Virus record (IMG/VR): IMGVR_UViG_3300045988_100685
DNA: 43,512 bases
Origin: a virus
Direction: 5' to 3' (one strand)
Below are positions 12,938-41,376 of the stretch, in pieces. Each line of letters begins with the position of its first letter. Within the stretch, counting starts at the first letter, position 1. The position numbers and the translations under genes are program-made. Under the pieces are notes generated by a model. That model was not told the DNA's origin. It made no database searches and was given only the letters and a program-made list of their open reading frames with translations.

Positions 12938-13261
12938 ATGATTGAGATTACATATTATTCGCGGTTTAATGCGGTTATAATCAAGGGACATTCGGGATTT
13001 GCCGAGGAAGGAAAGGACATCATCTGCGCCGGAGTATCGGCGCTTGCGTGGACTTTTGAGGAGGCCGCAAGGCGTCTTGTAAGAGAGAACAAGGCACTTG
13101 AGCCGACAATAGTAATGGAGAACGGCAGGGCGGAAATTTCCGTTGATGCACGACCGGATTACGAGTATGAAATAAAGCAGATTTTATCGTATATTTGCGG
13201 CGGGTTTAAGCATATAGCGGAGCAATCGCCGGAGTATGTGCGATACATAGAAAGAAATTAA
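12938..13261 (+). CDS. prp: Prp-like cysteine protease (ribosomal-processing protease / DUF464 family)
   Basis: 107 aa. IIKGHSGFAEEGKDIICAGVSAL contains the conserved His...Cys dyad motif (GH.G.A..G.DI[VI]CA.VSA) of YsxB/Prp. The gene occupies the position of a head-maturation protease, between portal and scaffold. Confidence 0.85.
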   Translation: MIEITYYSRFNAVIIKGHSGFAEEGKDIICAGVSALAWTFEEAARRLVRENKALEPTIVMENGRAEISVDARPDYEYEIKQILSYICGGFKHIAEQSPEYVRYIERN

Positions 13262-19775: not shown

Positions 19776-19967
19776 ATGAGCGAAAAGCAGAAAACGATAA
19801 CAGTGTTAATTTCCGAGTTTAAGACAAGCATTTTTAATGCGGTAAATGACAGCGGACTTCCGGCGGCGGTTATAGAGCCGATTTTGGGGAGCTTATATCA
19901 GCAGGTGGCGGCTATTGCCGCGGCACAGCTTGAAAAAGATAAATTGCAGGAGGAGGAGAAAGAATGA
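19776..19967 (+). CDS. Small hypothetical protein
   Basis: ATG at 19776 with a gcgaggt SD-like sequence 7 nt upstream. 63 aa, helical, with an acidic C-terminus. Confidence 0.45.
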   Translation: MSEKQKTITVLISEFKTSIFNAVNDSGLPAAVIEPILGSLYQQVAAIAAAQLEKDKLQEEEKE

Positions 19968-21064
19968 TTGCAGGAGGACGTTTTACCAACGTGGTGAATT
20001 ATAATGACGGCGGAGGCGGACGCTATAAAAAGAAGGATGAGTCGACAACGCCGCCGAAGCAGGACAGCGGAGAGTATAAGGGCTATTCTTTTGCGGGAAG
20101 CTATAAAGCTCCGAGTTATTCCTATTCGGTTTCCGGGTACGACCCCGCGAGCGACAGGGCGTACCAGCAGGCACTTTCCGCTTTGCAATCGGCATACGGA
20201 AACACCCCGACATACACCCCTACATACGACGCTCAGATTAACGATATTTATAACCAAATAATGAACAGGGGCAAGTTTAAGTACAGCCTTTCCAGCGACC
20301 CGCTTTATCAGGAAGCGCGGGAGCAGTACACCGGACAGGGGCAAATGGCGATGATGAATACCATGGGACAGGCGGCGGCTCTGACCGGAGGCTACGGCAG
20401 CAGCTACAGCCAAGCGGTGGGACAGCAGCAGTACAACGCCTACCTTCAAAACCTGAACCAGCTTGTTCCGGAGTATTACGACCGGGCATTTAACCAGTGG
20501 CAGGCGGAGGGCAGCGACCTTTACAATAAATACGGGCTTACCAAAGACCTTGCGGATACGGAATACGGCAAGTACCGCGACCAAATGAGCGACTACTGGA
20601 ACAATGTCGATTACCTTGCCAACCAAGAAAGCAGCGCCTACAACCGCGGGTTTGAAAACCACTGGAACACCGAAAATGCGAATATGAGCAACTATTGGAA
20701 CTCCGCCAACATTGCGAACACAAACTACTGGAAAAGCCAAGAGATGGCGTTTGATAACTATTGGAAAAGCGTAAACGCTGCGCTTTCGCAGCAGAAAGCA
20801 GCCGCAAGCGGCAGCGGCAGCGGAACGAGCGGCAGCGAGTATTCTTCTTCGCAATACAAGCAGTTCGTAGAAAACCTTGATAACATCAATTTGAACGTAC
20901 AAGCCAACGCCAAGGCGAGCGGTCAAGCGACGGCGGCAGCAAGAGCAAGAGAAATAAACTCTGCCGTTATGAGCGGAAGAATAAGTGAAAGCGATGCAGA
21001 CTTGCTTTTAAGAAAGTATGGCATAAGTTCGGACTACTTCGACAAAGTGAACGGCTATAAATAA
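19964..21064 (+). CDS. Hypothetical virion protein with N-Y-W repeat motifs
   Basis: 366 aa. It contains five copies of a [DN]-[YH]-W-[NK] motif (SDYWNN, ENHWNT, SNYWNS, TNYWKS, DNYWKS) about 11-14 residues apart, and is rich in Gln/Tyr/Ser. Confidence 0.55.
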   Translation: MIAGGRFTNVVNYNDGGGGRYKKKDESTTPPKQDSGEYKGYSFAGSYKAPSYSYSVSGYDPASDRAYQQALSALQSAYGNTPTYTPTYDAQINDIYNQIMNRGKFKYSLSSDPLYQEAREQYTGQGQMAMMNTMGQAAALTGGYGSSYSQAVGQQQYNAYLQNLNQLVPEYYDRAFNQWQAEGSDLYNKYGLTKDLADTEYGKYRDQMSDYWNNVDYLANQESSAYNRGFENHWNTENANMSNYWNSANIANTNYWKSQEMAFDNYWKSVNAALSQQKAAASGSGSGTSGSEYSSSQYKQFVENLDNINLNVQANAKASGQATAAARAREINSAVMSGRISESDADLLLRKYGISSDYFDKVNGYK

Positions 21065-21080
21065 TCGGAGGGCTTAATTT

Positions 21081-24000
21081 ATGAATTGGGCTGAAAGAAG
21101 AAGCATATACGAAAACAACCAGAAGACAGGCTCTAATACTACTGTAAGTTCAAGCGACCAATGGGCGGAACGCCGGAAGAAGTATAATTCCGGCGATATT
21201 ATTACTCCGCAGCAAAGAATGACGCAGGAACGAGTGCAAAGACAGCAGCAACAGTATTTGACGCAAAAAGCCGAATACGACAAGCAGCAGGCGGAGTATA
21301 ACCGCCTGCTGGGGCTTGACCTTGAAGAAGCGGGCAGACTGCGCACGAGCGCGAAAACCAGCCTTGATATGCTGAAAGATGCGAGAACCAAAATCGGGGC
21401 GGAGCTTAACACCCAAACTACAGGCATCAAGGCTTCCGGTATGAATCACAAAAAAATATCGGCGCTGCGAAATCAGATTAAAAGCCTTGATGAGCAAATT
21501 GCCGCAGCACAAAAGAGCTACGATGACAAAACATACGATTACCAGTACGCAAACCTATATCAAAAGCAAGCGGAACAGGAAAAGCTGATTAAGGAGCACG
21601 GCGATTATCAAGCGACCGTAAGCGATGCCATAGACGACCCTTATTATCGTAAAGTTAATAATCTTTTGGGCGTAAAAAGCAAAGCCGACCTTTACAGCAA
21701 AAGAAGCCAAAACAAGCTGCTGGGTGAAAACAGCGGCAAAATCATGTCGGAAATGACCGACGAGGAGCGCAACACCTATAATTACATTTTTGACACCGAG
21801 GGCAGAGAAGCTGCAAAAGAGTATATGGAAATACTTGAATACAGCCTTGCTTCGCGGTACAAAAAGAGCAGAACCGAGGACGCGCAGGAGATGGCGAACA
21901 GCGGCTTCGGAGGAGCGGCGGCGGGCACTGCACTGTCCATTATGGAGGGCGCAGTTAGCGACACCGGCGGAGGATTGGGCTTTTATCTCCAAAAAGGATT
22001 GAGGGATATAGGCTGGGCGGACGACAGCCTTCCTATAAACTACGAAAAAACCTTTGCGACTTCCACATGGAGCAATGCGCTTCAGGAACAGGTTTCGCAG
22101 AATATTACAGACAGCGGCAAAGACCTTTTCACTATCGGAGATTATACGTTCAACACCGGCAAAGCCGGAGCTTTTCTTTACGGCACAGGCGTTTCCATTG
22201 CGGACAACATGGCGCGAAATCTTATTTTTGCACCGTTTGGCAGCGCCGGAACACTGACCGTAATGGCGGCGAGAGTGGCAGGACAGAGCGTAAACGAGGC
22301 GCTTTCCCGCGGAGCTACGGAGGACGAGGCGGCCGCTTACGGCGTATCATCCGCAATAGGTGAGGTAATAGGCGAGGTCGCACCGCTTGATCATTTGCTT
22401 GGTATGGTAAACGCCGACCCTAAGACCGGGAAAGAGTGGCTTAAAGCTATTCTGAAACAGGCGGGGCTTGAAGCGTCCGGCGAGGCTATTACCACCGTGT
22501 GGAACGACCTTGTTTCCGCACAGGCGCTTGGCGATTTAAGCGACTACAATATGGCAAAAGCCGAGTATATACAGCAGGGCATGAGCGAAAAGGAAGCGGA
22601 AAAGCAGGCAACCAAGGACGCGCTGCACCAGATTTTCCTTGACGCGCTGGGCGGAGCGATTTCCGGTGTTGCAATGGGCGGCGGCGCTTCGGTTGTAAAC
22701 CGTACGGTTAGCCGCGCATCCGGCACGAGAGCGGAAAGCAATATAGCCTCCTCCCTTGTTTCCGACATTGACGAAAGCGAAGTTCAGAAGCGGGCGGCAA
22801 GGTATGAGAAAAAGGGCATGAGCACCGAGGAAGCCACTCAGAAAACCCGAGAAGACATCCAAAATAAAAAGGCAAAAGAATACACCGAGCGGGGAATGAG
22901 CGCCGAGGAGGCCGCAGGGGCGGTCAAGGCGGACGATATTGCCACGGAGGAAAGAAACAAAAAGCTGCGCGAGGAAATTCTTGACCGAGGGCTGAATGCC
23001 GAGGAAGGCAGCAAAGCCAACACCGCCGCAAAAGCAATTCAGGAAAAGCTGAAAAGCGGCGAAAGCGTGAGCGCCGACGAGTGGAAGAACCTTATCAAGA
23101 GCACCAGAGCGCAGGTCAGCCTTGCCGAAACCAAGGACGCCATAAAAAAAGCCGCCCAAAATAGCGGAGAAAGCCTTGCGGACACCGATGTTGACGTTAT
23201 GGCGGCGGCGATGGAAAAGAACTTCCAGGGCAAGAATATGTCCGAGGCGGAAAATAAGCTGATTAAGGGCAGCGAGGCGGCGAAAAAGGCTTACAGCGAG
23301 CTTACCGGGCTTAATTACGAGACGGGCAAGGTTATCCCCGAAATTGTTGAAGAAAAGAAAAAAGCGGCTATAAGGGACATTCTGGGCGAACAGGTGACCG
23401 ACTATGCCGGAGAGAACCGCAGCAACGGCTACAAAAACGCCCTTTCCAAGACATACAGGGCGTACCTGAGCCTTGTTGAGGAAGCTAACGCCGGAGATAT
23501 AGCGCAGTTACAGGCAAAGCTTAGCCCGGAGGGCTATGCGCAGCTTTTCAGCGAGTTCTACGAGTTCGGCAAAAGCGGTGAATATTCCGCTGATGTGCTG
23601 AAAGCAGACCTTGAAAAGCGCGGAGCAGTTCGCGGGGAAGCGCTGAAAGCCCTTGAAACCGCGTATGAGCTGGGCAGAAGCGAAGCTAAGAGCGGCGGAA
23701 TAAAGAACGCAAAGGTGCGGCAGGCGGAGCTTAACGCAAAAAAGCACGCCGAAAGGGAGAAAAAAGCGACTGCGCCGAAGGGCGTTGCACGCTCCATCAC
23801 CGAAAAAGAGTTTAAAACCGACGCGGCGAAGAACGCCGGGGCAAAGAGCATTGATATGAAGAAGCATTTTTCGCAGAAGCAGAGATATGCTATCGCTGTT
23901 GCACGCGAGTTTGCCAAAATGACCGACATAAACATTGTTTTTTATCAGACCGAGGACGGCAAGGGCGCGAACGGCTGGTATGACCGCGAAACGGACACTA

Positions 24001-27000
24001 TTTATATAGACCTTTTCTCCGGCTTTAACAATGAACAGGCAATGCTTAGAACCCTTTCTCACGAGCTGACGCACTTTATGGAGAAGTACAGCCCGGAGCA
24101 TTACGAGGAGTACAAGCAGTTCCTACTTGAGTATTACTACAACAAGGACAACGGCGAAACCCTAAGCAGGCTTGTTGAACAGGAAAAGAAGCTTGCGCCG
24201 AACCAAAGCGCCGAGTATTGGCAGAATGAAATCGTTGCGAACGCAAGCGAGATGTTCATAAACGACGAATCCGCTATGCGGGCGCTTATAAGCGAGCACG
24301 CGGACGTTGCGCAGACGGTCGACAACTGGTTCAAAAAGATGAACTATGCCCTGCGCCGGGCGTTCAAGGGCGTTGTGACGAGCGGCAGCGCCGAGGCGGA
24401 CGCCGCGAAGGAGCTGCAAGCAAACGTTGAAGCTTTTTCCGAAGCGCAGAAACGATGGAGCGCCCTGCTGAAAGAAAGCGTTGAAGCGAAAAAGGCGGTC
24501 GGTACGGCGGAGGAGAGCGGAGATGTAAGGTTCTCAAAACGAGTTGATTCCGACTACATGAAAGCCGTTGAAAACGGCGATACAGAAACCGCGCAGAAGC
24601 TTGTGGACGAAGCGGCAAGGGCGGCGGGGTATGATTCCGAACCGATCTATCACGGGACACAAAACTTCGGCTTTACAAAGCTTGATGTGTCAAAATCTGA
24701 TGATGAAATTTCTTTCTTTGCGACTTCAAACCTCGATATGGCGCAAACATACAGCGGTAAAAGCGGAACTAAGAAAATAAATGAAGCTCTTGGCGATATA
24801 AACAGTCTTACGGAAGAAGAAGTTGTTGACAGATTAAACAAAGAATCTGTGACGGACGGCTATGGGATGGGAAGCAAATACCGCATTATGCGCCCGGCGG
24901 ACGTAAAGGCGTTTTTGGCTGATGTAGACAAGAGAATTGAAAAGCTTGATGATGTTGTGGAAAGAAAAACCACGGAATATGCCGATAGGCTTGCAACGGA
25001 TTTTAACGATGCGAATTTACGAGCGCACAGTAAACTTGTTGCACTTTCTGAGGCTTTGCAATTTTATAACTACGACAAGATGTCAACGCCGCTTTGGATG
25101 CTGCTAAATAATACAGATGTGTTTAACAGCGCCGAAAAAAAGCGTTATGGTAATCTTGAAGCTGATATAAGGCTAAGAAACGGACTTACGGCGAAAAAAG
25201 GTATTGACGAAGGAGCGGTTATAAGAGAAAGCCTCGACCGTTACGAAATAAGAGTTAAAACCTTTGAGGAAGCAAAAAACGAGCTTGCGGCAAACGCCGC
25301 TTCCGGCAACTATGTTCTTCGCGGCAAAACGGATGGATTGCTCGAAATCGACGGCAACGGTCACAACTGGAACGATATTTTTGCAACGCTTGAACCGAAA
25401 GGCGGAAATACATTACGGGCGGAGTATGACTTTTCGACAAGTTCCGTTAAATTGAGCGACAAAAACGGAGAATTTGCGAATATCCCGGCAAGAACCCTTT
25501 CGGAAGCTGAGCCTGCTATGGCAAGGGCAATAACAAAGCATTACGGAAGTTATTTTGCTTCAACGGTTTTTGCGCAGGCAAGAGACCAACTTCGCAGCAG
25601 TGCAACCGCAAAGGTTGCTATAAAAACAACCGGAAAAACCGATACGCGAAATATTGCACAGTTTGCAAAAGAACAGGGCTACCGTGGAGTTAAAATTACT
25701 GATATTTACGACAACGGCGGCAGGGGCGCGAATGCAGACGCAGGAAATGTATACATATATTTTAATCCTCAAGAAGACGTTAAATCCGCCGACGCAGTAA
25801 CCTATGACGACGAGGGCAAGGTTATCCCGCTTTCCGAGAGGTTTAATGCGAAGAATGATGATATTCGGTATTCGATGCGGGGCGAAAATTGGAAGCCCAC
25901 TCTTGACAAAGTGGAGTGGAGAATTGTAAACTATGCTATAGAAAACAAAACCGGCAAAGAGCTTACGGAAACGACAGACTACTTTTTCCGCAAAGAAAAA
26001 GGAAAAACGGTGTTCGGTATTTACAGCACAGACGATTCAACACTGCTTTATGCCGTGCACGGAGAAAGAGCGACAAGTGAACACGACTTTTTAATCTTTG
26101 TTTTGGAGGCAATGAGCAATGAGAATATCGATAGAAAAAATGCAGGAAATACTGGTACGCTGCTTAGCCAGATTGGGTTGCAGCAAAATAGGCGTTCTGG
26201 TAATAATGGCGGAGCTGCAGAACCCGGACGATACGTGGGAAATGTTAACGTATATTTCGGAAAATCCAAAAGCGACGCCAGCGGAGCTTTACGAAATGTC
26301 CTCAAAAATATCTTCGGCGAGAGACAGACTGATGGAAGCAGAGAAAGCGGAGAACCCGGAGGAAGCAGAGGATTAACCGTTTCCGATCTCGGCAAAATCC
26401 AATACCAGCTCCGTATTGAGGACAAGAACCGCCTTGACATTCTGGATAAGCAGGAAACGAGGCTGACCGCAGACCTTAAAACCCTTGAAAAAGCGTATGC
26501 GGAAGCAATCAGAGCCGAGTACGAGCGCAGCATAAAGCCCAGCGAGGAAACGAGCAGACGCGCCGCAGAAATAAACAAAAAAGCGGCGAAGCGCTATATG
26601 AACGAGGTGGGCGCTACATTCCACGTGCCGAAGGACGAAAGAAGCCTGTATCTGCTGCCGATAATCAACGAGATAATCGACAAGGGACCTACCATAAGCG
26701 AAAGTGAGGGGCTGATTGAGCAGCTTTACAGAGAGGCTTACCGCCATTCGCAGGAGTATATTGTGGACGACGGAGGACTTTATAAAAAGGAGCGGGACGC
26801 TCTGCGCAATATGGCGATATATGTTGACCCCGGCACGAGGAGCGACGTTGGCGATTACGAAAGATTCCGTAAAAATAATATGGGAAGCTTGAAGCTTACA
26901 GGTGACCCAAGCGCAAACTCCCTTGACGGTTTGTATGATATGCTTGCGAACAACTACCCCGATTTTTTCAGCGGCTCTACCGACGGCGCAGAACAGCTTT

Positions 27001-30000
27001 ATGAGCTTTCCGCTTTTATGAAGAACAAGGGCAGAGTTGAGAGCATCGGCGACTATATGACCGAGGACGAGTTTGTGAAATGGGCTATGAACGGCGACAG
27101 CGGTCTTGACACGGAGCTTGATAATCTGTTCGACAAAACCGTTGGCAGCTTCCTTTCCGAGGCGAGCCGAAAGGAAAAAGAACGCACGAAAGCGGCAAAG
27201 GTCAACAACGCAATGGAAAATGTCCGCAACGCGGTGGAACATTACGGCGCGGCACAAGACTACGCCAGAGCAGAGAGTTTCCTTGCAGGTCAGATTGAAC
27301 AGGGCGCCAAGGACGCGGCGAAGCTGCGTGTTACCATCGAAAACTACGAGAACAGAATTAAGGCTTACCGTAACAAGCTTAGCGAAGTGCGGGAAAAACG
27401 CGACGCGGCGCTTAAAGCACGGCAGGAAGCTTTTGAAAACTACAAAGCGGAGAGAGCTGACAGCGCCAGACGCGAGGTGCTGCGCAAGCGTATAGCCAAG
27501 GGCGTTAAGTCTCTTAATACTATGCTGCTCAATCCTACGGACAACAAGCACATCCCACAAGACCTGCGCGGCGCTGTGGCGGGCTTCCTAAGCAACTTCA
27601 CCGACAACTCGAGTGTTTTCTCGAAGAGCAAGCTGGACGCGCTTGCAAAGGCGTACAGCAAGATTGCAGATGAAAGCAGCGACCTCAACGACCTTTACGA
27701 CCCCGACATTAAGGATTACCTTGACAAAATGGAGAAGACCGTCGGGGGCAAGCGGCTTTCGGAGCTTTCCGCAGATGAGCTGGAGCTTGTAAACGATGTT
27801 ACAAATTACTTTACTCACATTGTCCGAGACGGAAACAAGCTGCTTGTGGACGGCAGACGGCAGAATATTTCCGAGCTTGCTTCCGAAACCGTGAGGGCGG
27901 CGGAGAACCACGGATATAAGACCTATCGCGGCGGTACACTCAGCGGAGCGGTAAACTGGGCGGACAAATATCTCAATTACGATAATATAACGCCGTATTA
28001 TTTCTTCAACCGAATGGGCGGCGGTATGAAACGGCTGTATAACGATATGCTGTACAACAGCCAGCTTAAATATTCGCAGGATATAAACGAAGACCAGAAG
28101 TTTATGGCGAGTGTTTATGAAAAGTATCACGTCTGGGATTGGTCGAGCGCTAACCAGAAGAATAAGAATGACATTTTGAGATTTGAAACCGCAAGAAAAG
28201 GCGCGTGGCTTGAAATGACCCGAAACGAGGTACTTACGGCTTATGCTACCTATAAGCGCGGCAAAGCTCTCGGCGATGGCGCGGCGCATATGAAGGAGGG
28301 CGGTATAGTCGTAAAATCAAAAACGCCCGAAAAGTTTATGCAAGAGTATGTGAAAAGCTCTAAGGGCGTGCAGCTTGACATTGCGGATATTCAAAAAATG
28401 TTCGGATTCCTTACCGACGAGCAGAAAGCTTGTGCAGATGCGGTGGTTAATTACCTTACCACGGTGGAGGGCGCACGAAGAAATGAAACTTCTATGGTGC
28501 TTTACGGCTATAAAAAGTTTAACGAGACCTACTATTTCCCCTACCGTGTTGCAAGCGATTACACTAAGAGCCACGCCGGGCAGGAAGTGAGCCCCGATGG
28601 TGTGAAGCAGGTCGGCGGAAGCAAAATGCTTAAAAATATGGGCAGCGCGAAAACGCTTACCCCGAACGCGAACGCCGCAATCGTGATTGACGACTTTTTC
28701 AAGGTTGTTGCGGAGAGCATGAACGACACTGCGCGCTACCACGCCTTTGCGGTGCAGCAGGATAACTTTATGAGGGTGCTCAATTACAAGGATACGGTTG
28801 ACGCGGAGCACGGCAGCACAAGCGTTAAACAGGCTATTCGGGACAGCTACGGCACGGAGGGTATTAACTACATCACCGGGCTTATGGGCGACAGCTTTGG
28901 CGGAGCGGTGCAGCTCAACGACGATAATGTTTTTGGCAAGCTTTTCGGCAAATTTAAGAAAACCGCGGTTGCGGCCAACCTTTCCGTTGCGATTCAGCAG
29001 CCTTCGGCGATTATGAGGGCAACGGCTATGATTGACGGAAAGTATCTTGCCAAAACCGTACGTCAAAAGAACGCGCTTGAAGAAATGTACGATTACAGTT
29101 CCACGGCGTTCCTGAAAAATATGGGGCGGTTTGACATAGGCACAGGCAGAAGCGCGGAGCAGTACATTTTGAAGCCGGAGCTGAAAGGCAAGGACTATGT
29201 TAGACAGCTTTTTGCGACCGGAGAATACAGCACCGGAGAGCTGGACGACGTGACCGGGTTCCTCTCCGAAAAGGCAGACTGGGTAACCTGGGGGCACATT
29301 ATGAACGCCGTTATGGCGGAAATTGAGGACACCACGGATCTGAAACGCGGAACGGAGGAGTTTAAGCGGGCGGCAGGACGGCGGTTTGATGAGGTCGTGA
29401 ACGCAACGCAGGTATACGACAGCATACTTGTAAAAAGCCCAATGATGCGGGACCAAAGGGGAATTGCACAGATAATATCGGCGTTCAAAATGGAACCAAC
29501 GCTGAGCTACAACCTCTTTGTAGATTCCATCAGCAAGGAAAAGGTGGCTGCCAAAAGTGCGGCACGCGGGCTTTCGGCGCTTGCGCTTAATGTTCTTGCA
29601 AATGCACTGCTTAAATCTATAATCGGAGCATTGCGCGACCGCGACGAGGACAAAACCTACCTTGAAAAGTACACCGAGAAGCTGGTAAACAACATAGTAA
29701 GCGACCTTATTCCGATTCTTAATTTGCCGGGCGTAGACGCAATCTCCGAAGCGATTCAGGGCTTTACGACGGAGCTTCCCGAAATGGGTATGATTTCGGA
29801 CACCGTGAGCGCGGGCAATAAAGCACTCAAAAAAATAAGCAAAGGCGACTGGGGCGGTGCTTTGGGAGAATTGACCGTCGTATTCAACCTTTTCGGACTG
29901 CCTGTACGGAACGTTTACAGAGACTTTGCGGCAATCTTCAACACAGCGGTCAATACCAAGCCGCTGAAAGATACAAGCTTCGCGGGGATATATGAAGCGG

Positions 30001-30350
30001 CGGTTGACGGTTTTTTGGATTCGAGCACTATTTACGGAGCCGGAAAAGCTTTAGGACTTATAGACACGAGCAAGGCGGCAGGAATTAAAAAGGCAATGCG
30101 AAAAGGCGATTCTACAGAAATTCGCAAAGCTACAAACAAGCTTATCAAAGAGTATGTTGCGAGCGGTAAAAGTGAGAATGAAGCTAAAGGCTATATCAAA
30201 GGAGCTTTGACGAACTACTGGAAGCCACTGTACCAGAACGCGAACAGCGCGGAACGGGCAAAAATCCGCAAGGCGCTTTACGCTACCGGAATTTACGAGA
30301 ACACCGATGCGGTCGTGAAGATGTGTGACAACTGGCTTAAAGACGATTAA
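21081..30350 (+). CDS. Giant (3,089 aa) polyvalent-type virion/ejection protein
   Basis: A single uninterrupted ORF. It has an N-terminal coiled coil and a Gly-rich hydrophobic block (about aa 275-560). An HExxH segment follows (GWYDRETDTIYIDLF...LRTLSHELTHFMEK, H994-H998, nt 24060-24074). Next comes a segment DSDYMKAVENGDTETAQKLVDEAARAAGY...IYHGT..FGFT.F...FFATS...AQTY...NVYIYFNPQEDVKSADAVTYDDEGKVIPLSERFN, like the ADP-ribosyltransferase modules of polyvalent proteins. The C-terminal region is long and carries hydrophobic helices. Confidence 0.85.
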   Translation: MNWAERRSIYENNQKTGSNTTVSSSDQWAERRKKYNSGDIITPQQRMTQERVQRQQQQYLTQKAEYDKQQAEYNRLLGLDLEEAGRLRTSAKTSLDMLKDARTKIGAELNTQTTGIKASGMNHKKISALRNQIKSLDEQIAAAQKSYDDKTYDYQYANLYQKQAEQEKLIKEHGDYQATVSDAIDDPYYRKVNNLLGVKSKADLYSKRSQNKLLGENSGKIMSEMTDEERNTYNYIFDTEGREAAKEYMEILEYSLASRYKKSRTEDAQEMANSGFGGAAAGTALSIMEGAVSDTGGGLGFYLQKGLRDIGWADDSLPINYEKTFATSTWSNALQEQVSQNITDSGKDLFTIGDYTFNTGKAGAFLYGTGVSIADNMARNLIFAPFGSAGTLTVMAARVAGQSVNEALSRGATEDEAAAYGVSSAIGEVIGEVAPLDHLLGMVNADPKTGKEWLKAILKQAGLEASGEAITTVWNDLVSAQALGDLSDYNMAKAEYIQQGMSEKEAEKQATKDALHQIFLDALGGAISGVAMGGGASVVNRTVSRASGTRAESNIASSLVSDIDESEVQKRAARYEKKGMSTEEATQKTREDIQNKKAKEYTERGMSAEEAAGAVKADDIATEERNKKLREEILDRGLNAEEGSKANTAAKAIQEKLKSGESVSADEWKNLIKSTRAQVSLAETKDAIKKAAQNSGESLADTDVDVMAAAMEKNFQGKNMSEAENKLIKGSEAAKKAYSELTGLNYETGKVIPEIVEEKKKAAIRDILGEQVTDYAGENRSNGYKNALSKTYRAYLSLVEEANAGDIAQLQAKLSPEGYAQLFSEFYEFGKSGEYSADVLKADLEKRGAVRGEALKALETAYELGRSEAKSGGIKNAKVRQAELNAKKHAEREKKATAPKGVARSITEKEFKTDAAKNAGAKSIDMKKHFSQKQRYAIAVAREFAKMTDINIVFYQTEDGKGANGWYDRETDTIYIDLFSGFNNEQAMLRTLSHELTHFMEKYSPEHYEEYKQFLLEYYYNKDNGETLSRLVEQEKKLAPNQSAEYWQNEIVANASEMFINDESAMRALISEHADVAQTVDNWFKKMNYALRRAFKGVVTSGSAEADAAKELQANVEAFSEAQKRWSALLKESVEAKKAVGTAEESGDVRFSKRVDSDYMKAVENGDTETAQKLVDEAARAAGYDSEPIYHGTQNFGFTKLDVSKSDDEISFFATSNLDMAQTYSGKSGTKKINEALGDINSLTEEEVVDRLNKESVTDGYGMGSKYRIMRPADVKAFLADVDKRIEKLDDVVERKTTEYADRLATDFNDANLRAHSKLVALSEALQFYNYDKMSTPLWMLLNNTDVFNSAEKKRYGNLEADIRLRNGLTAKKGIDEGAVIRESLDRYEIRVKTFEEAKNELAANAASGNYVLRGKTDGLLEIDGNGHNWNDIFATLEPKGGNTLRAEYDFSTSSVKLSDKNGEFANIPARTLSEAEPAMARAITKHYGSYFASTVFAQARDQLRSSATAKVAIKTTGKTDTRNIAQFAKEQGYRGVKITDIYDNGGRGANADAGNVYIYFNPQEDVKSADAVTYDDEGKVIPLSERFNAKNDDIRYSMRGENWKPTLDKVEWRIVNYAIENKTGKELTETTDYFFRKEKGKTVFGIYSTDDSTLLYAVHGERATSEHDFLIFVLEAMSNENIDRKNAGNTGTLLSQIGLQQNRRSGNNGGAAEPGRYVGNVNVYFGKSKSDASGALRNVLKNIFGERQTDGSRESGEPGGSRGLTVSDLGKIQYQLRIEDKNRLDILDKQETRLTADLKTLEKAYAEAIRAEYERSIKPSEETSRRAAEINKKAAKRYMNEVGATFHVPKDERSLYLLPIINEIIDKGPTISESEGLIEQLYREAYRHSQEYIVDDGGLYKKERDALRNMAIYVDPGTRSDVGDYERFRKNNMGSLKLTGDPSANSLDGLYDMLANNYPDFFSGSTDGAEQLYELSAFMKNKGRVESIGDYMTEDEFVKWAMNGDSGLDTELDNLFDKTVGSFLSEASRKEKERTKAAKVNNAMENVRNAVEHYGAAQDYARAESFLAGQIEQGAKDAAKLRVTIENYENRIKAYRNKLSEVREKRDAALKARQEAFENYKAERADSARREVLRKRIAKGVKSLNTMLLNPTDNKHIPQDLRGAVAGFLSNFTDNSSVFSKSKLDALAKAYSKIADESSDLNDLYDPDIKDYLDKMEKTVGGKRLSELSADELELVNDVTNYFTHIVRDGNKLLVDGRRQNISELASETVRAAENHGYKTYRGGTLSGAVNWADKYLNYDNITPYYFFNRMGGGMKRLYNDMLYNSQLKYSQDINEDQKFMASVYEKYHVWDWSSANQKNKNDILRFETARKGAWLEMTRNEVLTAYATYKRGKALGDGAAHMKEGGIVVKSKTPEKFMQEYVKSSKGVQLDIADIQKMFGFLTDEQKACADAVVNYLTTVEGARRNETSMVLYGYKKFNETYYFPYRVASDYTKSHAGQEVSPDGVKQVGGSKMLKNMGSAKTLTPNANAAIVIDDFFKVVAESMNDTARYHAFAVQQDNFMRVLNYKDTVDAEHGSTSVKQAIRDSYGTEGINYITGLMGDSFGGAVQLNDDNVFGKLFGKFKKTAVAANLSVAIQQPSAIMRATAMIDGKYLAKTVRQKNALEEMYDYSSTAFLKNMGRFDIGTGRSAEQYILKPELKGKDYVRQLFATGEYSTGELDDVTGFLSEKADWVTWGHIMNAVMAEIEDTTDLKRGTEEFKRAAGRRFDEVVNATQVYDSILVKSPMMRDQRGIAQIISAFKMEPTLSYNLFVDSISKEKVAAKSAARGLSALALNVLANALLKSIIGALRDRDEDKTYLEKYTEKLVNNIVSDLIPILNLPGVDAISEAIQGFTTELPEMGMISDTVSAGNKALKKISKGDWGGALGELTVVFNLFGLPVRNVYRDFAAIFNTAVNTKPLKDTSFAGIYEAAVDGFLDSSTIYGAGKALGLIDTSKAAGIKKAMRKGDSTEIRKATNKLIKEYVASGKSENEAKGYIKGALTNYWKPLYQNANSAERAKIRKALYATGIYENTDAVVKMCDNWLKDD
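26119..26376 (+). CDS. Candidate embedded 85-aa ORF in an alternative frame of the giant gene (uncertain)
   Basis: GGAGG (26105-26109) lies 9 nt upstream of the ATG. The product MRISIEKMQEILVRCLARLGCSKIGVLVIMAELQNPDDTWEMLTYISENPKATPAELYEMSSKISSARDRLMEAEKAENPEEAED looks like a real helical protein. Over the same nucleotides the long frame is low-complexity and GGA-rich. Confidence 0.35.
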   Translation: MRISIEKMQEILVRCLARLGCSKIGVLVIMAELQNPDDTWEMLTYISENPKATPAELYEMSSKISSARDRLMEAEKAENPEEAED

Positions 30351-35567: not shown

Positions 35568-35930
35568 ATGGGAATGAGCGTAAAGTTTGCGGGCGACAAT
35601 AAAAGTTATGCTCTTATAAATGCAGAGGCACTCAGCATCGAGAAGGGACGCAGTGGAGTAAAGCTTATTATTGACGGCGGCAATTTTGAAGATATAAAAG
35701 AGCGTTTTATGAGCCCGGAAGAATACGATTTGCTTGACCCGGACGGTCCGGAGCCCCAAATAAGCCTTACGGAGTTTTGCGTGCTGTACGAAATTATGTA
35801 CAGTAACGGCAGATTTTATGTGACGATGGCGCAAAAGACCGCAGACGAGCGTATAGAGGAGCTTACTCAACAGGTGTCGGAGCTTAATGCGGAAGTGATG
35901 AGCTTGCAAAGCGGGGCGGAAGTAGTATGA
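35568..35930 (+). CDS. Hypothetical protein
   Basis: 120-aa ORF with SD aggaga upstream and a C-terminal coiled-coil-like segment. Confidence 0.5.
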   Translation: MGMSVKFAGDNKSYALINAEALSIEKGRSGVKLIIDGGNFEDIKERFMSPEEYDLLDPDGPEPQISLTEFCVLYEIMYSNGRFYVTMAQKTADERIEELTQQVSELNAEVMSLQSGAEVV

Positions 35931-37036
35931 CGAACAGAAAAATAGCTGTTTATACTATTTGCAAAAACGAAGAAAAAAACGTGCAGGCGTGGCTTGAAAA
36001 CGTTAAAAACGCAGATTATATATGCGTTCTTGACACCGGAAGCACGGACAAAACGAAAAAGCTTTTTGAAGAGGCAAAAGAAGCTTTTGGCGACAAGCTT
36101 GTTTTTGCAGAAACGGATTACGGAAATGATTTCCGCTTTGACAGAGCGAGAAACGATTGCTTAAAGCTTGTCCCGAATGACGCAAAAATTTGTGTTTGCC
36201 CCGACCTTGACGAACGGCTTTCCGACGGATGGAGGGAAGCAATATTAAAGGTATGGCGAAACAACACATCAAGAGCGCAGTACAAGTACATCTGGAACCA
36301 CAACGAGCACGGAGGCGAGGGAGTAACTTTTGACGCTGACAAAATCCACGCCAACGACGGCACTTACAAGTGGGTGAACCCGGTTCATGAGATTTTAGAG
36401 CGGGAGTGCCTTGAGGAATATGTGTATGTTGACGGTATGGTGCTTGAGCACTGGGCGGATGCAACGAAAAGCAGAGCGCAATATCTTGACCTTTTGGAGC
36501 TTGCAGTAAAGGAAAACCCGCACAACGACCGCAACACTCACTATTTGGGGCGAGAGTATATGTTCCGCGGCAGGTGGCAGGAAGCAATAAATATGCTTAA
36601 AAAGCATATTAGCATGCCGGAGGCAAAATGGGATTTGGAGCGCTGCGCAAGTATGCGGTTTATTGGTGATTGTTACTGCAAACTTTCTCAGCCTACAGAA
36701 GCAGAAAAGTATTATCTGCGTGCCTGCGCAGAAGGCTACAGAACCCGCGAACCGTGGTACGACCTTGAAAGGTTTTATTACGGGAGGCAGGACTGGGGCG
36801 GAGTAGTTTATGCCGGAGAAAAAGCAACGGCAATATCTGAAAAGGATGGCTCTTATATATGTGAGCAGGAGGCGTGGAGCGCCCTCCCATTTGATATGTT
36901 ATCTATCGGCTATTATATGACAGGGCGAAGGGCAAAAGCGCTCACAGCGGCGCACAGCGCCCTCTGCGCAGACCCCTGCAACGAGCGGATAGCTAATAAT
37001 ATAAAGCTTATGGAGGGAGACGCGAATGGACAATGA
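35927..37036 (+). CDS. Family 2-like glycosyltransferase fused to TPR-like helical repeats
   Basis: N-terminus IAVYTICKNEEKNVQAWLENVKNADYICVLDTGSTDKT plus an acidic DLDE motif is GT-A/GT2-like. The C-terminal half is TPR-like (YLGREYMFRGRWQEAINMLKKHI..., GDCYCKLSQPTEAEKYYLRA). Confidence 0.75.
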   Translation: MTNRKIAVYTICKNEEKNVQAWLENVKNADYICVLDTGSTDKTKKLFEEAKEAFGDKLVFAETDYGNDFRFDRARNDCLKLVPNDAKICVCPDLDERLSDGWREAILKVWRNNTSRAQYKYIWNHNEHGGEGVTFDADKIHANDGTYKWVNPVHEILERECLEEYVYVDGMVLEHWADATKSRAQYLDLLELAVKENPHNDRNTHYLGREYMFRGRWQEAINMLKKHISMPEAKWDLERCASMRFIGDCYCKLSQPTEAEKYYLRACAEGYRTREPWYDLERFYYGRQDWGGVVYAGEKATAISEKDGSYICEQEAWSALPFDMLSIGYYMTGRRAKALTAAHSALCADPCNERIANNIKLMEGDANGQ

Positions 37037-38697: not shown

Positions 38698-39153
38698 ATG
38701 GAGTACGCAAGCAAAGGTATTGCAAATGCAGGACTTACCACAGGTATTATCGGCACTGCCCTTTCCGGCGTAATGGCACTCGGCGGACTTGTTGGCGGCG
38801 GCAGAATGGCAGCAGCAGGAGCGGCAGACAGTGAACACCTTGTGAGCCGTTATGAGCTTCAGCTCACTCAGGAAAACGCCGTTCTCAAGGCTCAGGCGGA
38901 TGTTGACAAAAAGCTCATTGAGGTTTACAACTCTATCAACGACAAAGCAAATTCCATTCGTGAAAGCTTCAACACTTTTGAGAAGGAGCAGCTTGTTTAC
39001 AACGGGGTAAACACCGCGACTATCGGCTGTATTCAAAATCAGGTCAATGCTCTTATGGGTATGACTCAGCTCGTTATCCCGAACAGCTCCGTTTGTCCCG
39101 GCTGGGGCAATGCGACCGTAACCGTGTCCCCCGGTACCACCACCACCGGCTAA
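38698..39153 (+). CDS. Hypothetical membrane-associated protein (Gly-zipper N-terminus, coiled coil)
   Basis: 151 aa with strong SD aaaggagg. The N-terminus GIANAGLTTGIIGTALSGVMALGGLVGGG is followed by a coiled-coil-like segment and a Cys-containing C-terminus. Confidence 0.5.
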   Translation: MEYASKGIANAGLTTGIIGTALSGVMALGGLVGGGRMAAAGAADSEHLVSRYELQLTQENAVLKAQADVDKKLIEVYNSINDKANSIRESFNTFEKEQLVYNGVNTATIGCIQNQVNALMGMTQLVIPNSSVCPGWGNATVTVSPGTTTTG

Positions 39154-40269: not shown

Positions 40270-40298
40270 TTTAGCACCACACTTTGCACCACACTTTT
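40270..40298 (+). repeat. Right copy of the 29-bp direct repeat (overlaps the int stop codon)
   Basis: Identical to 40060-40088. Confidence 0.9.
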
Positions 40299-41376
40299 AT
40301 TTTTTACTCTCTAAAATTGAGGAAAAAACACCGCTCAGGGCGTTAGCTGTTGTCTTTCCGTCTCCGGTTAAGGAATGACCATATACACCAAACGTGTCCA
40401 TATTGGCGGAGTGCCCCACGACAGATTTTACAAGACCTTCGGGCAAGGTTTTAGCGATTGATACAAAGGTGTGGCGCAAGCCGTAAGGCGTGACATGCGG
40501 CAAATCGTGAACCTCGCAGTATTTATAAAGGTGTTTTTCGTAGCACGCGGTTGATTCGATGGGAAATATATATTCCTCGGGCGAAAATTTTTTTATTTGC
40601 GCATTTATCGTTTTCTGCGCAAGAGGGGATAGGTAAATAATACGTTTTGCGTTTTTGTTTTTTCCCTCGGTTATTTTGCCCATTACGTCAATGGAGCGCC
40701 GAATAAACAATTTGTCTTTTTGATAATCGTTTAGCTTTAGCCCACGGAGTTCACCGGGGCGTAGCCCGGTAAGCACTTGCAGGCGATAGGCGTAAATATA
40801 CATTTCTTGCCCCGGTTGCCCGTTAAAAGTGGTCGTATCATCGGCGAACAGTATTTTAAGGTCATCAGGCTGCAAGATAGTTTGCTCTTTGTGCTGCGCG
40901 GCAGCGGGAATTGTTAGATCTTCAGGTACATACGAAGTGAGCTTTTGTTTGCGGCAATACTTAATAAAGCCCGTCAAGTCACCGCGAATATTCATAATGG
41001 TTTTCTTTGAAAGGTGGCCTTTTGTGTGGGCTTTATTGATTACGTCCTGCAAGTCTTTGTCCGACAGGGAAGCCACGGAACGGCAGCCTATGATAGGTTC
41101 GATATGGCAGCGCCAGCGCTGTTCTTTTGGGGTATAATTCCGTTCAGATGTAGTTTCTTTGACGAGCGCGAGATATTCAAGATAAACTTGATTGACTTTT
41201 GCATTTTGATTTTCTACGCCCTCATCGAGCCAGAGGTCTGCCTTGCGGTTTGCTTCGCGCTGCCCGGTGCGACCGGGCGTGCCGGAATAGAAGCTTTTGC
41301 GAACGCCGTCGCGTTGGACGTTTATTTTCCAGTATTGCTTGCTCTCGTCCCATTTTGCGGTGTTTGTTCTTTTCAT
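40297..41376 (-). CDS. int: Tyrosine recombinase (phage integrase) with N-terminal arm-type DNA-binding domain
   Basis: Catalytic motifs LRPGELRGL (Arg), LRHTFVS (His-x-x-Arg), GHS and VYGH (Tyr). The N-terminus WDESKQYWKINVQRDGVRKSFYS looks like an AP2/arm-binding domain. Confidence 0.93.
   Translation of the reverse strand: MKRTNTAKWDESKQYWKINVQRDGVRKSFYSGTPGRTGQREANRKADLWLDEGVENQNAKVNQVYLEYLALVKETTSERNYTPKEQRWRCHIEPIIGCRSVASLSDKDLQDVINKAHTKGHLSKKTIMNIRGDLTGFIKYCRKQKLTSYVPEDLTIPAAAQHKEQTILQPDDLKILFADDTTTFNGQPGQEMYIYAYRLQVLTGLRPGELRGLKLNDYQKDKLFIRRSIDVMGKITEGKNKNAKRIIYLSPLAQKTINAQIKKFSPEEYIFPIESTACYEKHLYKYCEVHDLPHVTPYGLRHTFVSIAKTLPEGLVKSVVGHSANMDTFGVYGHSLTGDGKTTANALSGVFSSILESKK

Follow-up and report, generated by a model that had tools for sequence, protein, structure and literature searches.

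This analysis concerns a giant gene in a viral DNA stretch of 43,512 nucleotides (nt), the IMG/VR record IMGVR_UViG_3300045988_100685, which is referred to below as the window. The gene encodes a protein of 3,089 amino acids (aa) that, judged by its sequence, is a new member of the known class of polyvalent proteins. At least two disparate domain activities are predicted in this one polypeptide, which is the mark of a polyvalent protein: a zincin-like metallopeptidase of the MPTase-PolyVal family and a homologue of the ADP-ribosyltransferase (ART) family ART-PolyVal. The gene also stands in a late, virion-gene setting, with portal, capsid and fibre genes on the same strand and with synteny in 58 of 63 complete relatives. 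The polyvalent architecture put forward in the original prediction is upheld by both observations. The gene itself is a single open reading frame (ORF):

21081-30350, plus strand: giant ORF of 3,089 aa, ATG start, no internal stop (ORF listing and translation)

It takes up 9,270 of the 43,512 nt (21.3%), in agreement with the earlier statement that one uninterrupted ORF of 3,089 aa fills about 21% of the genome. The preceding gene stops at 21064, the giant gene starts 16 nt further on, and a ribosome-binding site (GGAGGG, 21067-21072) lies 8 nt 5' of the ATG. Equivalent open frames of 2,415-4,106 aa (median 3,221) occur in 63 complete relatives on independent IMG/VR contigs; because these frames are of equivalent length, the possibility of an assembly artefact was rejected. 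The enzyme-like parts of the protein are located as follows:

23898-24485, plus strand: MPTase-PolyVal zincin-like metallopeptidase, aa 940-1135 (Pfam PF18818, motif conservation, ArdC profile match)
24546-24632, plus strand: lead-in helix DSDYMKAVENGDTETAQKLVDEAARAAGY, aa 1156-1184, of a kind that precedes many ART-PolyVal modules
24633-24890, plus strand: N-terminal ART-PolyVal-like half, strands 1-3, aa 1185-1270 (PF18760, local hidden Markov model (HMM), exotoxin A profile alignment)
24891-25622, plus strand: insert of about 245 aa in the ART domain, aa 1271-1514 (homologue alignment, local HMM, AlphaFold2 (AF2))
25623-25859, plus strand: C-terminal ART-like half and tail VKSADAVTYDDEGKVIPLSERFN, aa 1515-1593 (local HMM, independent E-value (i-E) 1.7e-11)

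The metallopeptidase segment contains the motif H994-E995-x-x-H998 (HELTH, aa 994-998) at nt 24060-24074, and E1050 of NEIVANASE, at nt 24228-24230, is the candidate third zinc ligand. An HExxH motif with a Glu on the next helix is the zincin signature of MPTase-PolyVal (Iyer et al., 2017; PMC5512222). When aa 900-1160 were scanned alone, PF18818 was matched with 29.3 bits (E 1e-6; profile positions 17-58 of 126), above its Pfam gathering cut-off of 27.5 bits; on the whole protein the score was 23.0 bits, below that cut-off. The HExxH motif is kept in 76/76 homologous regions from relatives, and in an alignment of 14 sequences reaching down to 21% identity (A3) the only invariant columns are H994, E995, H998 and E1050. 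A profile of this alignment matches the ArdC metalloprotease (PDB 6i89 and 6sna) at E 0.007, with the HExxH and Glu motifs in register. Across the family, 130 of the 132 full-length members contain an HExxH motif, against 3.65 expected from shuffles, and these motifs cluster at 30-40% of protein length. The segment aa 940-1135 appears to be a genuine zincin that is probably active, and the strict conservation of its site argues for a selected enzymatic function. The earlier reading of the HExxH segment as a polyvalent metallopeptidase is supported by the segment score, the invariant H-E-H-E set and the ArdC alignment, and the expected conservation of HExxH among homologues is likewise observed.

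The second module, called cassette A here, begins with the lead-in helix, in which DSDYMKAVENGD starts at aa 1156. The stretch DSDYMKAVENGD...AAGY recurs as the N-terminal lead-in of ART-PolyVal modules. The motif coordinates given in the original prediction all proved correct (HELTH at nt 24060-24074; Y1190-H1191 at nt 24648-24653): IYHGT occupies aa 1189-1193 and GWYDRETD runs from aa 965, while FFATS, AQTY, VYIYFNP and SERFN start at aa 1212, 1221, 1557 and 1585, respectively. PF18760, the ART-PolyVal family, is matched over aa 1189-1236 with 20.1 bits (E 1e-3; profile positions 9-56 of 140), below its Pfam gathering cut-off of 31.2 bits. A compact ART protein among the relatives (P0011) aligns twice, at aa 1142-1230 and aa 1557-1607. 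Similarly, when four compact ART-PolyVal domains were combined into an HMM, it found two separate segments of the protein, aa 1154-1269 at i-E 2.5e-17 and aa 1515-1592 at i-E 1.7e-11; these scores owe part of their strength to the lead-in helix and C-terminal tail, outside the catalytic core. Since both comparisons match in two pieces, the domain is taken to be split by the insert of about 245 aa, and the split explains the low score against PF18760. The insert was modelled by AF2 as a long helical hairpin with an alpha/beta subdomain (predicted local distance difference test (pLDDT) 80-92), had no Foldseek match in the PDB and is present in 3 of 150 family representatives.

ART-PolyVal is defined by a His in strand 1, a Tyr in strand 2 and an Asp in strand 5 (Iyer et al., 2017; PMC5512222). 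In 51 compact ART domains, three positions are conserved in at least 90%: His in YHGT, Asp in G-Y-D-G and Lys in Q-I-K-S; from this conservation it is deduced that the G-Y-D-G Asp is the strand-5 Asp of the family. The first two defining residues are retained in cassette A. H1191 (nt 24651-24653) occupies a column that is invariant in two alignments (A1 and A4), and Y1224 of AQTY (nt 24750-24752) is invariant among the insert-bearing relatives and 60-90% conserved in the compact domains; the aromatic position preceding this Tyr is a Phe (FFATS), as in many family members. Conservation of YHGT among homologues had been anticipated, and the His frequency in the compact domains bears this out. 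At the position of the conserved Asp stands R1535 (G-Y-R1535-G; nt 25683-25685). In the remaining relatives with the insert this position holds R, P, E or G, and D in P0010 only. D1544 (I-Y-D1544-N-G-G; nt 25710-25712), which is invariant across the insert-bearing subfamily, might substitute for the conserved Asp.

A profile of the compact ART domains matches the catalytic domain of Pseudomonas exotoxin A at E 0.007-0.017, aligning YHGT with GYHGT (H440) and the Tyr motif with AYGY and ending before the catalytic acid. At the profile level, this match ties the ART-PolyVal family to the H-Y-E transferases, with a likeness that covers the N-terminal half only; unlike the H-Y-E ARTs of the diphtheria toxin and exotoxin A type, cassette A has no acidic residue at the conserved position of its family. 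An AF2 model of aa 1150-1610, made with a 13-sequence alignment, reached a mean pLDDT of 69 and a predicted template modelling score (pTM) of 0.45, and its best Foldseek match in the PDB had E 0.29, with no ART among the matches.

By these comparisons aa 1185-1593 are an ART-PolyVal homologue, atypical and split, that lacks one defining residue. The earlier proposal of an ART module therefore holds for homology to ART-PolyVal, with H1191 and Y1224 kept, and does not hold for a standard domain, in view of the score of 20.1 against 31.2 bits, the insert and R1535. Of the two Pfam profiles, MPTase-PolyVal exceeds its cut-off on the excised segment but not on the whole protein, and ART-PolyVal stays below its own; the candidate Glu mutants suggested as ART controls concern the wrong residue type for an H-Y-D family. 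Because R1535 replaces the conserved Asp, an active ADP-ribosyltransferase cannot be assumed. Some natural H-Y-X transferases, for instance several PARPs, function without the acid, so that the activity of cassette A is considered doubtful rather than excluded.

Cassette A lies in a region of the protein that is exchanged among relatives. The remaining features of this region are:

24522-24542, plus strand: junction motif 1, DVRFSKR, aa 1148-1154, where scaffold I gives way to the variable slot
25860-25880, plus strand: junction motif 2, DIRYSMR, aa 1594-1600, closing cassette A
25881-26315, plus strand: cassette B (GENWKPTLDKVEW...), a small domain, aa 1601-1745 (homologue alignment)
26316-26420, plus strand: Gly/Ser/Arg-rich linker, aa 1746-1780, ending in the junction-like IQYQLR, after which scaffold II resumes

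BLAST maps of the homologues showed two conserved scaffolds flanking a variable slot, aa 1155-1770. Among full-length relatives the nearest is P0029 (3,035 aa), with 89% identity over aa 69-1154 and 87.5% over aa 1591-3089; between the scaffolds it has no detectable similarity and carries a canonical ART-PolyVal (72.9 bits, full profile). In P0001 the split ART is present at 90% identity and is followed, after DIRYS, by a MuF_C (PBECR) nuclease instead of cassette B, the place of which is taken in relatives by MuF_C/PBECR or other modules. P0019 has 713 extra aa before its copy of the split ART, namely an acetyltransferase, PBECR3 and a compact ART. Further cassettes are LPD3, PBECR5, MuF_C and ART in P0022-25, and a PBECR5 cassette among the relatives scores 118.9 bits. 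Taken together, these combinations indicate that the two slots assort independently. The GC content falls from 0.54-0.55 to 0.42-0.47 at nt 24700-26300, within the slot (nt 24546-26420), against 0.51-0.55 on either side, and this trough independently supports the view that the cassettes are of foreign origin.

A short junction motif stands at each seam. Six copies are present in P0019, and D[IV]R[FYW][SQE] occurs 57 times in the 150 representatives, against 1.8 expected, with a concentration in mid-protein. DNA repeats at the cassette seams within the giant gene are short and at chance level only, so that its nucleotide sequence showed no recombination sites. Cleavage at the junctions would be an attractive idea, resting on motif positions in low-confidence linkers of the model. 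As a side observation, NYETGKVIP in scaffold I (aa 745-753) resembles YDDEGKVIP of the ART tail (aa 1575-1583), and the DNA at 23314-23338 and 25804-25828 is 84% identical over 25 nt; the likeness may be what is left of an earlier module end or may be due to chance.

Outside the slot, the protein consists of the following parts:

21081-21887, plus strand: charged Q/E/K-rich helical N-terminus, aa 1-269 (composition)
21888-22760, plus strand: Gly/Ala/Ser-rich low-charge block, aa 270-560, part of the conserved scaffold (Kyte-Doolittle, composition)
22761-23897, plus strand: Ala/Glu/Lys-rich helical spacer, poorly conserved, aa 561-939 (composition, representative coverage)
26421-27377, plus strand: charged helical lead-in of scaffold II, moderately conserved, aa 1781-2099
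27378-29930, plus strand: universal C-terminal module, mostly alpha-helical, aa 2100-2950 (phrog_22978, AF2, BFVD)

The C-terminal half, by its distribution, is the universally conserved core of the family. The C-terminal region matches phrog_22978 at E 2.4e-187, and an exhaustive search with aa 1860-3059 retrieved 3,502 protein clusters (counted at 50% identity) at E<=1e-3, of which 2,632 reached the stricter E<=1e-30. With few exceptions, the proteins in these clusters are 2,300-4,900 aa long and have the match at their C-terminal end. Coverage was counted in the best 150 family representatives: aa 2100-2950 are covered by 149/150, aa 950-1150 by 75-80/150 and aa 250-550 by 60-90/150. About 1,500 residues had earlier been described as having no recognisable function; they are instead to be seen as this conserved core. 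The AF2 model of aa 2100-2950 is mostly helical (pTM 0.75). Against the PDB, Foldseek found nothing below E 0.8 for this model; against BFVD, it found terminal segments of giant uncultured-phage proteins (E down to 1e-32, template modelling score up to 0.75), whose names include PolyVal ART, MuF_C, nuclease, LPD, restriction-enzyme and acetyltransferase domains. Sequence searches of the PDB with aa 900-1640, with aa 1600-3089 and with a 13-sequence C-terminal profile yielded only spurious matches to coiled coils or designed proteins. The sole window of the whole protein with a hydropathy above 1.6 lies in this module (aa 2826-2853, nt 29556-29639) and reaches 1.73, which is of transmembrane grade.

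In the N-terminal regions, the first 110 or so aa are not conserved even among close relatives. The residues E/K/Q/R/A make up 42-50% of aa 1-270 and 560-930, and aa 1-269 probably form a coiled coil, judged by composition alone; to that extent, the earlier mention of a coiled coil fits. The block aa 270-560 contains 43% G+A+S+T, compared with 31% overall, and 18% charged residues, compared with 29%. Its four amphipathic-hydrophobic segments (aa 274-293, 377-401, 417-443 and 513-540) are moderately hydrophobic, with Kyte-Doolittle peaks of 0.97-1.37 over 19 aa. The Gly-rich hydrophobic block noted earlier is thus real in composition; the suggestion that it suits membrane insertion needs correcting in that the peaks stay below normal transmembrane thresholds. 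Four repeats of the form [RKQ]G[ML][SN]xEE[AG] belong to the Ala/Glu/Lys-rich spacer, at aa 500, 579, 605 and 637 (nt 22578, 22815, 22893 and 22989), and two of them are visible as a 22-nt DNA repeat (22576-22597 and 22813-22834).

The genome setting was established by PHROG and Pfam scans. Upstream of the giant gene lie genes for TerS, TerL, a P22/SU10-type portal, a Prp-like peptidase and the major capsid protein. Further genes before it encode a protein of 627 aa that matches phrog_511 ('internal virion protein'), a fibre that carries a Peptidase_S74 chaperone, and a 366-aa protein. Downstream are collagen-like and other fibre genes, a glycosyltransferase and an endolysin. The window also contains temperate-phage genes: an anti-repressor, RecE/RecT, a DnaD-like loader, SSB and, on the other strand, an integrase. 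Among the neighbours, PHROGs and Pfam revealed no tube, sheath, tape-measure or chaperone family, in line with the original prediction, which placed the gene where a podovirus-like phage keeps internal or ejection proteins. The phage is temperate, about 43 kb in size and podovirus-like (short-tailed type), with the giant gene inside its virion module, and from the gene order we infer that the giant protein is a virion protein. Its reading as a tape measure was rejected, the neighbours being without tube, sheath or chaperone families and the portal being of the P22/SU10 type. NCBIfam had no meaningful match for the giant protein or for the 366-aa and 627-aa genes, and a nucleotide search of the giant ORF against 50,697 phage records gave no match.

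One neighbour accompanies the giant gene with regularity:

19964-21064, plus strand: 366-aa gene, conserved upstream partner (synteny in IMG/VR loci)

A homologue of this gene is present in 60 of 80 IMG/VR loci (44/80 for the 627-aa gene), and in 58 of the 63 complete cases it lies on the same strand, 0.2-2.4 kb from the giant gene. It has no Pfam, PHROG or NCBIfam match, and a protein search matched only unannotated faecal contigs. It is probably a structural or assembly partner. Three further observations concern the window. The Prp-like cysteine peptidase gene (12938-13261, plus strand; phrog_4478, and PF04327 in a syntenic locus, L005) directly follows the portal gene, a position suggesting that a head protein matures by proteolysis. 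A beta-1,4-glycosyltransferase moron (35927-37036, plus strand; phrog_13126, E 1.5e-98) lies between the fibre genes and the endolysin. Beyond nt 39000 the GC content is 0.41-0.44 and the genes are on the minus strand, including the integrase (40297-41376).

Relatives of the giant protein were found in two collections. A search with one degenerate pattern found 145 in species-representative genomes, almost all of them gut Clostridia, with Acutalibacteraceae, Oscillospiraceae, Lachnospiraceae, Roseburia intestinalis, Ruminococcus and Faecousia as host groups. Two patterns found 305 in IMG/VR, on contigs clustering at 36-46 kb. An IMG/VR search with aa 1760-2100 as query gave no close relatives, and a protein search with the C-terminal half returned one unannotated faecal contig at 28% identity. 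Some relatives occur in other surroundings. A lone fragment of 1,755 aa from P0019, a close relative, sits in a bacterial chromosome (L001 10001-15268; also L002 and L003). It comprises the equivalent of aa 1000-1994 plus the 713 aa of extra cassettes, and it lies between a complete type I-E CRISPR-cas operon and mntP/rplJ/rplL. Three samples show this identical arrangement, and the fragment is either what remains of a prophage or a piece that has been domesticated. At L005 (10001-13771), a relative with 86% identity over aa 111-1238 ends at residue 1,256, inside the ART cassette, and the host genes ppx/gppA and acyl-ACP thioesterase come after the truncated giant gene; this locus is a decaying prophage truncated within that gene. 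P0026 (L004 10001-15301) is a distant relative of the C-terminal module, at 24% identity, encoded after an rve transposase gene and before Rep3, resolvase and M23 peptidase genes, with myovirus-type baseplate genes and a reverse transcriptase further upstream. The C-terminal module may therefore exist outside podovirus-like phages as well, or the L004 contig may join two elements.

Among known systems, the giant protein resembles the described polyvalent proteins in being a giant multidomain protein encoded among late virion genes and in combining a zincin with an ART-type module (Iyer et al., 2017; PMC5512222). Its relatives, like the class, add PBECR/MuF_C nucleases, LPD3, LPD23 and acetyltransferases, and their mosaic architectures recall those of the orthologues of Helicobacter pylori jhp1044 (PMC5512222). 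Unlike the polyvalent proteins described so far, its ART is split by a 245-aa insert and has an Arg at the conserved Asp, and about 60% of it (the N-terminal block, cassette B and the 850-aa C-terminal module) has no Pfam PolyVal or LPD match. No mention of the conserved scaffold or of the D[IV]R[FY]S junction motif was found in the passages of that source that were consulted (PMC5512222). Clostridium (Enterocloster) clostridioforme LM41 carries two prophages of about 41 kb, phi1 and phi4, which are podovirus-like by prediction and electron microscopy and have one 8-kb ORF each, with LPD3 similarity, at the 3' end of the prophage (PMC11318856). By the published description, they share with the phage in the window a single ORF of about 20% of the genome, polyvalent-associated similarity and a gut Clostridia host; unlike the LM41 ORFs, the giant gene has no LPD3 and is located between fibre genes.

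The C-terminal metalloprotease of ArdC is the archetype of MPTase-PolyVal. Its HExxH helix and downstream Glu helix (E-E-[LI]-[IV]-A) align with those of the giant protein at marginal similarity, whereas ArdC as a whole is a 297-aa plasmid antirestriction protein with a single-stranded-DNA-binding N-domain that is delivered by conjugation. Phage T4 Alt provides the experimental precedent for a head-packaged and injected ART (PMC5512222), although Alt is a single-domain protein of the R-S-E clade. Phage N4 gp50, another giant virion-packaged podovirus protein with an MPTase, is the paradigm for the co-injection of a huge protein with DNA; unlike it, the giant protein has no detectable polymerase module, and the lifestyle and genome of the phage differ.

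We lean towards the reading that the giant protein is a virion-delivered polyvalent protein, with predicted packaging, injection, processing and activities. It would be synthesised late, alongside capsid and tail proteins, become enclosed in the short-tailed virion and leave it before the DNA or together with it. The scaffold, made up of the Gly/Ala-rich block (aa 270-560), the metallopeptidase (aa 940-1135) and the helical module (aa 2100-2950) with its hydrophobic helices, would serve incorporation and passage of the envelope. The peptidase might process the polyprotein, plausibly at exposed junctions, or attack host proteins. The cassettes would be fast-evolving effectors that act on host targets early in infection. 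For the ART-like cassette, NAD+ binding or non-canonical catalysis is more probable than the role of a standard H-Y-D transferase.

Several results weigh against this reading. PF18818 passes its cut-off only on the excised segment. PF18760 fails its cut-off, and the conserved Asp position is occupied by R1535. The ART core of the AF2 model is weak (pLDDT 40-66), and the Foldseek matches lack an ART. The N-terminal Gly-rich block remains below transmembrane thresholds, and for the C-terminal module the PDB sequence and Foldseek searches gave no relative whose structure or function is known. Finally, the junction motif does not co-vary with detectable homologues of the resident metallopeptidase (odds ratio 0.93, p 0.86), which leaves the cleavage-site idea without statistical support, in a co-occurrence test that is uninformative as 130/132 members have some HExxH.

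The main alternative, possible though unlikely, is that the giant protein is essentially a structural ejection or channel protein, what a podovirus would have in place of a tape measure or of T7 gp15/gp16, with the enzyme-like modules as decayed passengers that play no effector part. The Gly-rich block and the C-terminal helical module would then form a conduit across the Gram-positive envelope. It accords with such a role that the universally conserved parts are non-enzymatic (aa 2100-2950 in 149/150 representatives, aa 250-550 in 60-90/150), that hydrophobic helices cluster at aa 2822-2946, that the ART cassette has lost the conserved Asp and that the structural neighbourhood with the 366-aa and 627-aa genes is conserved. 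The strictly conserved metallopeptidase site nevertheless argues against decayed passengers, as do the intact cassettes of relatives (ART-PolyVal at 72.9 bits, PBECR5 at 118.9 bits, MuF_C), the constant turnover of which is typical of arms-race effectors, and Foldseek revealed no structural similarity between the C-terminal model and any solved ejection or tape-measure protein in the PDB.

A more elaborate proposal, which we hold tentatively and regard as rather unlikely to be right in all its parts jointly, is that the protein is an effector polyprotein that processes itself, carried on a universal delivery scaffold not described before. The C-terminal module and Gly-rich block would then be the packaging and ejection device of thousands of gut phages of about 40 kb, each D[IV]R[FY]S[KM]R junction would serve as a recombination seam and also as a site where the zincin cuts the cassettes free after injection, and the Asp-less, insert-bearing ART would be a neofunctionalised NAD+-binding module instead of a transferase, for example a decoy or sensor against NAD+-depleting defences.

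Much less probable is a protein that is not delivered by the virion at all and that the prophage expresses for the benefit of the lysogen, whether as a toxin, as an exclusion factor or as a weapon resembling polymorphic toxins. The phage is temperate, with an integrase and an anti-repressor, the P0019 fragment of 1,755 aa persists alone beside type I-E CRISPR-cas in three samples, and ART-PolyVal is related to the Tox-ART-HYD2 clade of polymorphic toxins (PMC5512222). The gene is nevertheless embedded in the late structural operon, in the same orientation and 16 nt after the preceding gene, its synteny with virion genes extends to 58/63 relatives, and family scans recognised no signal peptide, secretion-system domain or immunity gene. 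Very improbable, and rejected, is a highly divergent N4-type virion RNA polymerase in the C-terminal 1,500 or so aa: N4-like virion RNA polymerases are giant (about 3,500 aa), packaged, always fused to an MPTase and sometimes to an ART (PMC5512222), yet no RNA-polymerase match was found in Pfam, NCBIfam or PHROGs, the 13-sequence profile had no credible PDB sequence match, the Foldseek PDB matches of the pTM 0.75 model included no polymerase, and a temperate genome of about 43 kb with RecET, DnaD and SSB is unlike those of N4-like phages.

Polyvalent proteins are predicted to be a main phage route for delivering counter-defence enzymes with the DNA. To our knowledge, almost none of them has been studied experimentally. 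The window offers a tractable example, a temperate gut-Clostridia phage of about 43 kb that devotes 21% of its genome to one polyvalent protein. No new principle is involved, and the interest lies in how clearly scaffold and cassettes can be told apart, in the size of the family and in the atypical ART. The last of these calls for caution in annotation, as the label 'PolyVal ADP-ribosyltransferase' can pass by homology to modules that lack a conserved catalytic residue. The map given here separates the constant parts (the Gly-rich block, the intact zincin and an 850-aa module found in more than 3,500 clusters) from the exchangeable cassettes. Since near-identical scaffolds carry different cassettes, including canonical and Asp-less ARTs, the role that these cassettes may have in host range or defence evasion becomes testable.

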